Of a stretch of 64,000 bases of DNA, positions 20,305 to 27,769 are shown in pieces. Each line of letters begins with the position of its first letter. Position 1 is the first letter of the stretch. The stretch lies in contig CAXHJY010001640.1 of the NCBI GenBank assembly GCA_964016885.1, positions 1 through 64,000 on the forward strand. Reading direction: 5' to 3'. A model generated the notes under the pieces. It worked only from the letters and a program-made list of their open reading frames with translations. It was not told the origin of the DNA and ran no database searches. The DNA is from Eledone cirrhosa (Eukaryota). Position numbers and translations under genes: made by a program.

Positions 20305-20866
20305 TCGACCACTCAATCTTGAACTTAAGTTCTCTTATCGAGTGGTCTTGGATTTCCTACCTATAGTTGCTCGCATATTGCTTGGTTTGTTGTTTTTTCG
20401 CTGTTTTGTTACTGTTTTCTCTTTGCTCCTTCTTCCGTTTTCCCAATAACTTATCCAGTTATTGACGCCCTGGGGTGAGGTATATTGTCTTTAAAGCGTA
20501 GAAATATCCGAGACCCCCAGTAGACAACTAATGAGGAAAACTCCCCCCCCCCCCCCGTTCTTGCTTTCTTCGTATTCCCACTCCATTTTAAGTTACCTTA
20601 ACTAGCAACTACACAGCCATTTCTATTCTCCATATATTTCATCATGTTTTTCGCTGTGACCATTCTTCTCTCCCCTTCTACCTACCTATTTCTCTACTTT
20701 CTACTCTCACCCCTCTTTCTTCCCCTCCTTTTCTGCCTATCTACTCTTACCCCACTTTCTTCCTTTCACTTTCTCCCTCTCACTTTCACCCTCTCGTCTG
20801 ACCGTTTAGCAGTTCTCTTCTCACTTACAACTGCGGCGATCGGACGTGTGTCCCTCTCCTTCCTTT
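20305..20866 (+). mobile_element. ~560-bp non-coding repeat, permutation B-C-A, with structured RNA at 20444-20544
   Basis: Shares the blocks gaacttaagttc, cccaataactta..agttattg, gccatt, tcgctgtgacc, cgtctgacc and tcggacg with 27186-27769, in rotated order. Confidence 0.75.
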
Positions 20867-20867
20867 C

Positions 20868-24460: not shown

Positions 24461-27185
24461 TGCGTCCATGCAACTACATATGTATATAGACATGTAGATA
24501 TATATGACACATATAAAATCGTATACATAAATGTGCGCGCGTATATGCTTACATGAGTTTGCGAAAGAGAGAGAGAGAGAGAGAGAGAGAGGGGGGAGAG
24601 AGAGAGAGAGAAAGATACTTTACCTGTATGTATAAATGTAGTCAGTAATGGATGTGTATTTGCGTGTATGCACGTACATCAATGTGTAATCATTTATGTA
24701 TTCATATAAAAATATGTCTATCAATTCAAAATATCCATAAATGTGTGTGTGTGTGTGTGTGTGTGTGTGTGTGTGTGTGTGTGTGTGTGTGTGTGTGTGT
24801 GTGTGTGTGTGTGTGTTTAAGTGATTTGCATAGAAAGGAAATTATTAGTTTGTTCGGAACTGTTAAGTTTATTCTGTTCTGTAAGACAAACATTGCCTAC
24901 CAAGTTCAGATAAACGTTTGAGCAGTCCCTAATCGCTTGCTTTGGCATATTTCTTACCGTCACCATTTTAATCAAATTAAACTGTCATTTCTTCAAATAT
25001 ATGTAATTCAAATATATGTAATTCAAATATATGTAATTCACGCCAATATATAAACAGTAAAAATAGAAATATATCTCTCACAAACATAAAATGAAAATAT
25101 GATAAACCAGAAATGAACTCATGTCCGTAGCAATAGTATGGTACTTATCTCATCAGCCCTTTTATCTACGATCTACGATATATATTTATGAATAACACAT
25201 CTCTGTGAAGTTTCATTAAAGACAGCGCAATGATATGTAACATAAAATCGAAACAAGGATCAAGTCCGGATAACAGCTTATGTGCAGACGCAAACTCACA
25301 TCATTCCCAGTGTTTATTTTTGCATAATATCGCTTACACAGAGAAGCGCTTGTATATCTATAAAATTCTGTTATTGCTTGCTTGTCTGTAATGTAATACA
25401 GCCAAAGTAGTGCATAATGGGAAAATACTTTGAAAGGAAGTTGCCCCTGTAATGGGAATACAAATGGACTAAAGCAAGTTTCGCATAAATCGGAGCACGG
25501 GTTCCCGAGATACGGGGTTTTTCCGGGTACCTTCATAAATAGAGAGAGAGAAAGATAGAGAGAAAGAGATAGTGGTTGTGACAGAGTAGATTCAAAGAGA
25601 GGCATAGAAAGAGCGAGAGAAGGAGACAGGGAAGGAAAATGGAAGAATGAGAGAGCTGGTGGGTTTGTTGAATGAAATTGTGTGTGTGTATATATGTTTG
25701 TGTATATATATATATATGTGTGTGTGTGTGTGTGTGTGTGTGTGTGTGTGTGTATGTGTGTGTGTGTGTGTGTGTGTGTGTGTGTGTGTGTGTGTGTGTG
25801 TGTGAGTGTGTGTATATATATATGTATATGTGTGTGTGTATATATATATGTACATATATGTGTGTGTGTATATATATATATGTGTATATATATATGTGTG
25901 TGTGACCAGTGTATATAGGTCACAGACACCCACATGTATATATATATATATATATGTATACACATACACGCACACATATATATATATATATAAACACACA
26001 CACATATATGGGCCTTCCAATTTCATTTTACATTAAATACATGTCTGTGTATATTTTAATTATTTAAAAATTATTTTTAAGTGAACATGATTTTAAAAAA
26101 AATATTTTTAAGGGAACATGATCCAACAGGTCACGGGTGGTCTAGTCTTTATATAACTTTCTGTTCATCGATCTTTGTGTATTCTTACACTTATTGTATC
26201 ATAAGTGGAGTAAAATAAACATACAAATATGCATAGATACCTAGATCGATCCACTAAACTATTGCTGAACCAGTTAGAAATGGCAGCCAAAACCACACTC
26301 TTTTGTCTTAAACAGTCACAAAATTATGTAATCCTAGATATGTTTAAACTGACAGAGTGGTCAGGATGACTTTGATCAAAGACACTCGAGCCACACACAC
26401 ACATGCACACATACGCGCACACATACATGCATAGCTATATACAAAGGTGGATCCTCTACAGGGTCATTGAACCTGGTAGAAATAACAGCCAAATCCCACT
26501 CTATTTTATTAAAGAGACAGTCGTCAATTTAATCCTAGACACATATTTAAAAGACAGAGTGGTCATGGCCCGAATGATTCTGATCAAAGATACTCTAGCC
26601 CTGTTTGCAAATGGATGGTTAGCCTGTCTTTTATCAAAGTCATTCTAAATAAAAAATCATAATCCATTAGGAGTGTATATACATACAATAAATGGAGAGT
26701 TTGTCTATCGATTACTTTCATATTTAATTGCCACCACAATCTAGGAACCACGACCATCTGCAGTTTCCATCGCTATTTCCATTTACATATATACCATGTG
26801 AATATATTAGAAAATAAACTCTTCAGCATAGTGTGTTCACAATAGTGTGTCTATATATACCCTCCACTCTCAATAAGCGTGAACCTAATACCTTTCGTAA
26901 CTTGTACTCCTGTGTTGTTTTTTACTTTCCCATATATATGCGCGCGTGTGTGTGTGTGTGTGTGTGTGTGTGTGTGTGTGTGTGTGTGTGTGTGTGTGTG
27001 TGTGTGTGTGTGTGTGTGTGTGTGTGTGTGTGTGTGTGTGTGTGTGTGTGTGTGTGTGTGTGTGTGTGTGTGTGTGTGAATTTTACGAATTATCGAAGCG
27101 GTTCGATGATTTGAAATTTATAAATCCAAACACATAATTGCTACAATGATAATAGCGTTAGAAAATCAGAGTAACAAACATGTTC

Positions 27186-27769
27186 CAGCACGCCATTTTT
27201 CATTCTTATATTTCTTCCCCTCGCTGTGACCTGTCTTTTTCTATTCCCTTACTGCTATCCTCTTTATCTCTCCTCCTTCTCTCTCCTTGTACCTCTTACT
27301 TTCCTTCACCTCCTCTGCTGGCCACCCTCTCTCGGCTGGCCTCTTCCTCACACTTTCCCTCACTCACTCTCTGCTACACACCCTCTCTCACTTCCTCCCG
27401 TCTGACCTGTGTGAAATCCTTTTCTCGCTTACATTTCGCAGGGTTCGGACGCGTCCTTCGTCTTCTCGTCGATGATATGCTAGAACTTAAGTTCACATGT
27501 ATCACTCACTTGTTTTCTCATTTTCCTCTCTTTACGTTGCCTTACCATTTTTGTTTGTTTACATGTCTCTCTTTCTCCACCCAATTCTTTTTATCCCAAT
27601 AACTTATTTTAGTTATTGTTCGCGCTGGCTTGAGGTATCTGGTCTTTAATGCGAAGAAATACCGATGATGGCCAGAAGATCACTGATGACGGATAGTCCT
27701 GGTTTCTTGCTCTATTTTTTAATTCATATGTATCACATTCGCAACAACTCAGCACGCCATTTTTCATTC
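27186..27769 (+). mobile_element. ~564-bp non-coding repeat, permutation A-B-C, with 20-bp terminal redundancy
   Basis: cagcacgccatttttcattc at 27186-27205 and 27750-27769; homologous to 20305-20866. Confidence 0.78.
27597..27699 (+). ncRNA. Candidate rearranged (non-circularly permuted) hammerhead ribozyme
   Basis: ggta-TC-tggtct(27634-45) ... GAAA-tacc(27656-63) ... agatca-CTGATGA(27677-89). Extra helices show compensatory changes relative to the 20444-20544 copy. Confidence 0.6.

Follow-up and report, generated by a model that had tools for sequence, protein, structure and literature searches.

A tandem-unit, non-coding element with a predicted, rewired hammerhead ribozyme and Penelope-like insertion ends in the genome of Eledone cirrhosa

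Two copies of a non-coding element in the window

The stretch analysed here, 64,000 nt of Eledone cirrhosa DNA (assembly GCA_964016885.1, contig CAXHJY010001640.1, positions 1 to 64,000 of the forward strand; the window), contains two copies of a non-coding element carrying a motif predicted to be a self-cleaving hammerhead ribozyme. The initial annotation of the window had described them as circular permutations of a retrozyme-like unit. Examination of the two copies and of their relatives in the genome led us to a reading which we consider likely, namely that they belong to a superfamily of tandem-unit, non-coding elements with fixed 3' ends at (TA)n tracts and variable 5' ends, copied in trans by a Penelope-like element (PLE) and bearing a hammerhead with rewired strands. 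The features of the two copies are as follows.

27186..27775, + strand: copy 2, subfamily sf2, 564-bp unit; 1.05 units, 5'-truncated, 3' end at the distal fixed initiation zone and running into (TA)n
27186..27205, + strand: wrap-around, the same unit bases as 27750-27769 (a terminal redundancy, not a target site duplication)
27597..27618, + strand: hairpin P0 ahead of the ribozyme (27597-27604 pairs with 27611-27618)
27620..27629, + strand: displaced stem II strand (27620-27623, pairing with 27651-27654) and strand bridging stems I and II (27625-27629, pairing with 27671-27675), both with covariation
27634..27644, + strand: block S, with stem III strand, UH triplet and stem I strand
27651..27663, + strand: block G, with stem II strand, GAAA (27656-27659) and stem III strand
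27671..27689, + strand: bridging strand (27671-27675), stem I strand (27678-27682) and intact CUGAUGA core (27683-27689)
27725..27775, + strand: 3' initiation region ('tail'); copies of the family terminate near 27733 or at 27769-27775, each at a TA-like word
20305..20860, + strand: copy 1, subfamily sf1, unit of about 578 bp; 0.96 unit, 5'-truncated, 3' part lost at a breakpoint
20444..20534, + strand: ribozyme motif of copy 1, predicted site 20484/20485

The homology of the two copies and their swapped block order, as first proposed, were borne out by alignment. Positions 20402-20544 of copy 1 aligned with 27552-27699 of copy 2 (73% identity, E 4e-20, local score 135) and 20616-20862 with 27192-27465 (65%, E 1e-16, local score 144), far above the maximum scores of 57 and 87 reached by 200 locally shuffled controls. 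Each copy is about one unit long, and neither has a recognisable open reading frame, the frames at 27162-27599 and 20602-21171 being without a Pfam family match. The 20-bp redundancy of copy 2 (27186-27205 and 27750-27769) is internal to the element, as had been claimed, and the same bases join units in tandem copies; copy 2 extends 20-26 nt into the following unit.

By analogy with hammerheads, the RNA of copy 2 is predicted to be cleaved between 27639 and 27640. The core of copy 1 reads CUAAUGA, with G5 changed to A at 20530, and this copy is probably inactive as a ribozyme, since changing this G abolishes hammerhead cleavage (Eckert et al. 2023, PMC10085705). Outside the ribozyme, sf1 and sf2 have in common several short words and a 14-bp palindrome (27221-27232, 27399-27408, 27446-27452 and 27482-27495 in copy 2), and such conserved words are possibly an internal promoter or a protein site.

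A predicted hammerhead opened within block C

The order of the motif is hairpin P0, strand a, strand b, block S (stem III-UH-stem I), a 6-nt linker, block G (a'-N-GAAA-stem III'), strand b' and stem I'-CUGANGA. Stem II is thus formed not with the strand after CUGANGA but with a strand upstream of block S, and the bases 3' of the CUGAUGA core in copy 2 form no stem II. Since the stem II and bridge strands occur in the order of a type-SGC hammerhead but upstream of block S, the motif is, on its sequence, an SGC fold opened within block C, between A9 and stem II.

For a survey of the core, 212 copies were gathered on the strength of their linker and the pairing of their stems, the core letters being left unused. 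The 12 conserved positions were 97-99.5% conserved, N7 was U, C or A, and H17 was G in only two copies. The core was fully intact in 179/212 copies, with stems I and III in register with it. Stems I and III, the displaced stem II (a) and the bridge (b) covary, both sides having changed in 15/28, 15/20 and 16/20 pairs in three alignments, figures which are not probabilities, the alignment rows being related. The covariation score was reached by none of 500 shuffles, and slid controls paired at 24-44%, while the upstream strand completed stem II with 97.5% pairing. Every core position is present, in S-G-C order and with covarying stems. The proposal of a retrozyme-like, non-coding family with a rearranged hammerhead core is supported, and the motif is predicted to cut its RNA. 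Its helix order does not appear to fit the hepatitis delta virus-like, pistol, twister or hairpin classes, and a degenerate pattern of the motif had no matches in metagenome and viral contigs.

Fixed 3' ends and variable 5' ends

At least seven subfamilies were found, with units of 495-578 bp that are 49-70% alike; the natural units of four of them measure 495, 527, 564 and 578 bp, with mutual identities of 48.5-70.2%. Each window copy represents a separate subfamily, and divergent neighbours led to the further ones. Genome searches gave 4,704 and 2,560 first-look candidates, which are not copy numbers, and 40 were scored per search. Subfamily sf5 is young, 14 of its 40 scored copies being identical to the query over 201 bp. 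A young sf3 copy (L096:2049-2600, +) adjoins an exon, which we take to be the end of a paired-type homeobox.

The 3' ends of the family run into (TA)n and fall at fixed positions, the two ends lying 36-50 nt apart, a spacing like that of the PLE tail (30-40 bp) and of the two internal starts in the anole PLE; the 5' ends are scattered. In a set of 30 sf2 loci collected with the ribozyme alone as query, 28 ended in two zones, at about +94 and at +130-136 from the predicted cleavage site, and the remaining two look like internal deletions. All 20 sf5 loci ended at +119-120, and 29/30 sf3 loci at +127-130 (two of the sf3 insertions being counted twice). A larger sf5 sample of 49 pieces had 39 ends at +118-120, eight at +69 (several of these being inverted heads) and two elsewhere. 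An inverted 5' piece was flagged at 6/30 sf2 loci. Longer copies wrap directly into the preceding unit, and sf5 arrays reach 5.8 head-to-tail units in a set that includes arrays chosen for length. Insertion lengths across the family, from about 0.3 to 5.8 units, spread twenty-fold. Three sequencing runs of unrecorded kind contained many variant copies and wrap-around joints, and are uninformative on RNA.

These observations do not bear out two parts of the initial annotation. One unit length is not the rule, the sf2 loci measuring 0.27-1.38 units, and the copies are not random unit-length circular permutations: the 3' terminus is fixed, a result which the annotation had itself set against its claim, and only the 5' end varies, wrapping round the unit. 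The insertions instead have the anatomy of a non-autonomous PLE: the 3' end is fixed, with an optional tail of the 30-40-bp type, 5' truncation is random, tandems are partial, some 5' pieces are inverted and the targets are microsatellites. PLEs have been described as forming partial tandems at (TA)n targets, with a tail of 30-40 bp and with truncated heads in inverted orientation (Craig et al. 2021, PMC8557442), and in the anole the PLE tail was explained by reverse transcription that starts at two internal sites (Frangieh et al. 2024, PMC11167929). Given this match of fixed 3' ends, scattered 5' ends, inversions and (TA)n targets, copy 2 represents 1.05 units copied from a fixed start to a random stop. 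Copy 1 owes its permuted order to 5' truncation and to a later breakpoint. The insertion pattern itself is known PLE biology.

In the cycle that we propose, a locus spanning two ribozymes would be transcribed and the hammerhead would release a unit-length RNA, possibly ligated into a circle. A PLE protein would nick a (TA)n tract, and reverse transcription would start at either of two fixed internal positions of the RNA, 70-135 nt beyond the cleavage site, proceed backwards over ribozyme sites, one to five or more of them, and stop at random, an inverted second piece sometimes being added. A fixed start combined with a random stop would yield the apparent circular permutations.

Candidate Penelope-like partners and the Naiads

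Two young PLE families were found in the genome. One is abundant, with 775-aa open frames and a GIY-YIG domain (loci L197-L226, for example L213 and L214); its 3' ends lie at (TA)n, at two fixed points separated by about 70 nt. The other has open frames of more than 700 aa elsewhere in the genome (loci L367-L396) and is present in the window as fragments at 2-424, 4691-5638 and 35170-35682. We take the former to be Neptune-like and the latter Hydra-like. Both were rejected as donors of the motif, which was not found in the own 3' regions of the PLEs sampled; the neighbouring matches inspected (L263 and L274) were separate insertions, L271 and three model matches beside PLEs at Hydra-like loci having been inspected less closely.

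A likely donor is a PLE of the Naiad clade. Naiads were reported to lack canonical hammerheads, eight being flagged as having a 'half core' (Craig et al. 2021, PMC8557442). In the last 200 or so bases of the published consensus sequences of two octopus Naiads, Naiad_Obim and Naiad_Ovul, we could see by eye an intact core, the four helices, each a Watson-Crick stem of five pairs, and the same P0 hairpin loop as in the motif of the present family. The bobtail squid consensus Naiad_Esco has, again by eye, blocks S-G-C, helix b and the same linker, with three of four pairs in helix a. The wiring was not seen by eye at the ends of Naiad_Omin, Naiad_Adux and those spider, nematode and ostracod Naiads that were examined. 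With the same wiring at octopus and bobtail squid Naiad ends, the ribozyme module likely derives from the pseudo-long terminal repeat (pLTR) of a Naiad-clade PLE.

We put forward more tentatively, as something we would not yet expect to hold in full, that this is an active hammerhead with a fourth break point (A9/stem II), the first non-circularly permuted one in an animal genome; that it is an unrecognised ribozyme of cephalopod Naiads; and that it escaped into non-coding circular RNAs which outlived their Naiad donor and are rolled into multimers by the enzyme of another PLE.

Within the Eledone genome, decayed Naiad-type PLEs lie at L449 (G000:C2:153407500-153417300), L418 and L452-L501, one of them near full length and interrupted by a long interspersed nuclear element (LINE); by eye, the remnants resemble the published octopus Naiads. 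A 20-nt pattern derived from Naiads was not enriched, with 11 matches against 100 for the reversed control; four of its matches, of low copy number, score weakly on the model of the motif (E 0.001-0.33). Old, low-copy relatives of the motif occur at L399, L400, L402 and L405 (about 1445-1575), their helix a and 11.1 base being nearer to the octopus Naiad version than to the young subfamilies.

The ends of five other Naiads (Naiad_Smim, Naiad_Hcon, Naiad-3_Nbra, Naiad-1_Dst and Naiad-2_Dst; File S5 of PMC8557442) show by eye CUGANGA followed by a long hairpin and GAAA, and may be further atypical hammerheads missed by standard descriptors.

Circular or linear template

Whether the template is a circular RNA seems to us evenly balanced. 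Of 76 mapped 5' ends, no more than two fell within 5 nt of the predicted site, in a walk that also stops at indels; reverse transcription thus passes the site freely, and the template is either ligated or uncleaved. The arrays of up to 5.8 units fit a circle, as do private variants common to all units of an insertion: the four units of L192 are identical and have two private substitutions in common, the two units of L194 likewise have two, and 20 of 21 sf1 insertions repeat the same ribozyme subtype (by our own reading, one duplicated locus being counted once and one neighbour of another subfamily dropped). An apparent recurrent discordance at sf5 positions 328-330 proved to be an alignment artefact. 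The same element and PLE partner could also do without a circle, on a linear, largely uncleaved tandem transcript, with arrays arising by duplication at the DNA level and a hammerhead that is slow or trims precursors; we give this somewhat less than an even chance. DNA-level duplication or uncleaved tandem transcripts explain the arrays and private variants too. Uncleaved RNA is the main template of the anole PLE, insertion of which was unaffected by ribozyme mutations (Frangieh et al. 2024, PMC11167929). The scarcity of 5' ends at the predicted site would suit a linear template, but a ligated circle likewise predicts no pile-up there. Some arrays are mixed, among them L034, which joins two subtypes, and L505, with variants in two of three units; in L043 core position C3 is changed in both units. 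Self-pairing of the units is weak (37-44% paired; z from -0.4 to -2.1 against 12 shuffles each), in contrast to the strong pairing of known retrozyme circles. Variants tied to one unit rank, which an aged linear master array should leave, do not recur between sf5 insertions, with the exception of an end artefact at position 67 and of one duplicated locus. At L168 (1.68 units) a variant present in both redundant parts was private in the smaller sample but common to eight insertions in the larger.

The reading of a PLE-copied superfamily with a predicted self-cleaving hammerhead has further to be set against explanations that dispense with the ribozyme, with the family or with the fixed start, and, besides the mixed arrays, the weak self-pairing and the anole result, several findings weigh against it. 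A canonical stem II with the strand after CUGANGA is absent (36% of cells paired, no better than shuffles); at most one of its pairs, 10.1-11.1, forms, in 45-70% of rows, and ribozyme activity is uncertain for these reasons. Rows entered one alignment (A2) because they paired well, and its figure of about 97% is inflated accordingly. No Rfam family matched at the gathering score, three weak chance matches including no ribozyme, and single-sequence folding of the motif was unremarkable (z -0.3 to -1.4) with a program that cannot fold pseudoknots. The absent canonical stem II, the lack of an Rfam match and the unremarkable folding would suit a non-catalytic motif, a protein-binding or initiation signal whose likeness to a hammerhead is vestigial or due to chance. 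We regard this as unlikely, for subfamilies that are no more than 49-70% alike preserve exactly which hammerhead positions are fixed and which are free, and their stems I and III stay in register with the core. As to the partner, the family with 775-aa frames shows no homology to the unit, and its hammerhead is of the ordinary type I, the core being a variant (UUGAAAA) and stem III a palindrome; no active partner with this ribozyme was found in the genome. The evidence for the Naiad link consists of published consensus sequences inspected by eye, and the Naiads found in the genome are decayed (30 matches, longest open frame 202 aa); no young one was found among the best candidates scored, which is no proof of absence. 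The motif was at the own 3' end of none of 20 genomic Naiads (the model covering 18), two nested family copies aside. A view of the copies as solo pLTRs belonging to a longer autonomous PLE in the genome, rather than as an independent non-autonomous family, would agree with the occurrence of the motif at the ends of published Naiads and with the usual 5' truncation of PLE insertions (PMC8557442). It is nevertheless improbable: longer copies enter the previous unit and not an open reading frame, the sequence shared within sets of 20 sf5 and 20 sf7 loci is the element plus short common repeats, and the PLEs sampled have no motif in their own pLTR by our model. Least credible of all, and very improbable, is the model of the initial annotation, in which unit-length circles are reverse-transcribed from random starts, possibly by an RTE enzyme. 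It drew on the two permuted window copies, each within 5% of one unit, and on the RTE element abutting copy 1, but the 3' ends are fixed, the lengths vary twenty-fold and the RTE junction lies within the RTE frame.

Comparison with known systems

The element works like an animal non-LTR (long terminal repeat) retrozyme or a non-autonomous PLE, a kind already described. Animal non-LTR retrozymes (Cervera and de la Pena 2020, PMC7229834; Li, Clavereau and Pollet 2026, 10.64898/2026.07.22.740005) are likewise non-coding, low-GC units with one hammerhead each, found as monomers to multimers, and have been proposed as non-autonomous PLE derivatives related to pLTRs. They differ in having type I hammerheads and highly self-paired circles of 170-400 nt. 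The present family has the S-G-C order with a split block C, in pyrimidine-rich, weakly paired units of 495-578 nt. It therefore resembles non-LTR retrozymes as a non-coding unit, dispersed and in tandem, and falls outside them in hammerhead type and self-pairing.

The closest ribozymes are the type-SGC hammerheads HRIMA-1 (Eckert et al. 2023, PMC10085705), in which the order is likewise S-G-C, stem I leads through a short linker into stem II, and the two stems are bridged by a helix whose 3'-side strand is found just ahead of the stem I strand of block C. In HRIMA-1, block C runs on into stem II and then the bridge to stem I, whereas here those strands precede block S. The block model of the same authors has six arrangements, keeps CUGANGA joined to stem II and assumes a break between A9 and stem II to be impossible; descriptor searches based on it would thus miss a split block C. 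HRIMA-1 comes from environmental sequence, and no motif is reported there from the genomes of known organisms save one bacterial GCS candidate; the present motif, in contrast, lies in an animal retroelement.

Like the family, Naiads form partial tandems at (TA)n targets, are truncated at the 5' end and have inverted heads and a tail of 30-40 bp (PMC8557442), and two of the three cephalopod Naiads showing the wiring were there flagged only as 'HHR_half_core'. Naiads encode an endonuclease and a reverse transcriptase, whereas the present unit encodes nothing and has only the ribozyme module in common with them. MRC1 and other non-autonomous Chlamys PLEs are also non-coding, pLTR-forming and often multi-copy head-to-tail, but are algal and mostly without a reported hammerhead (PMC8557442). 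The Poseidon PLE of the green anole has two internal starts downstream of its hammerhead and AT-rich targets, which give two fixed 3' ends; it differs in being autonomous, with a canonical hammerhead the cleavage of which is not needed for insertion (PMC11167929).

Neither the motif nor the family was described in the literature searched, which excluded subscription journals, Dfam and Repbase; the supplements of Eckert et al. 2023 and of the 2026 preprint may hold related alignments. The wiring order of the hammerhead core is apparently undescribed, and what is new here is this wiring and its link to cephalopod Naiads. A split block C widens the arrangement rules for the best-studied small ribozyme and offers a testable answer to why some Naiads seemed to be without hammerheads. 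The young subfamily sf5 provides a clean system in which to ask whether PLE enzymes roll round circular RNAs, a step assumed in retrozyme models.

The junction of copy 1 and neighbouring sequences

Two features flank copy 1.

20164..20304, no strand: (TA)n-rich microsatellite, 5' junction of copy 1
20869..23435, - strand: RTE-type LINE fragment, interrupted within its frame where it meets copy 1; adjacent sequence, outside the element

The LINE fragment has an RVT_1 domain at 21495-22607, and, with the initial annotation, we take it to be an RTE. Copy 1 follows the sf1 unit only to 20860. The RTE has no natural 3' end at the junction, all seven other RTE copies compared continuing past this point, in agreement with the earlier description of a truncated end. 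No further sf1 sequence was found elsewhere in the window and no RTE continuation left of copy 1; insertion of the element into the RTE is for the latter reason unsupported. The simplest reading would be that a deletion fused two neighbours, copy 1 and the RTE. The junction is uninformative on the mobilising enzyme, and the suggestion that the RTE might be the mobilising partner is not upheld, the junction lying within the RTE frame and the insertion anatomy being Penelope-like. An RTE-mobilised short interspersed nuclear element was likewise rejected, because the junction is an internal breakpoint and no 3' end is shared with an RTE partner. Using ARAGORN, a tRNA was found at one of eight loci, the other seven having none; this is a tRNA-Ser(CGA) at L137:737-807 (+), an sf4 locus. 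Another LINE-type reverse transcriptase fragment occurs in the window at 14738-16036 on the - strand (RVT_1, E 1e-18).

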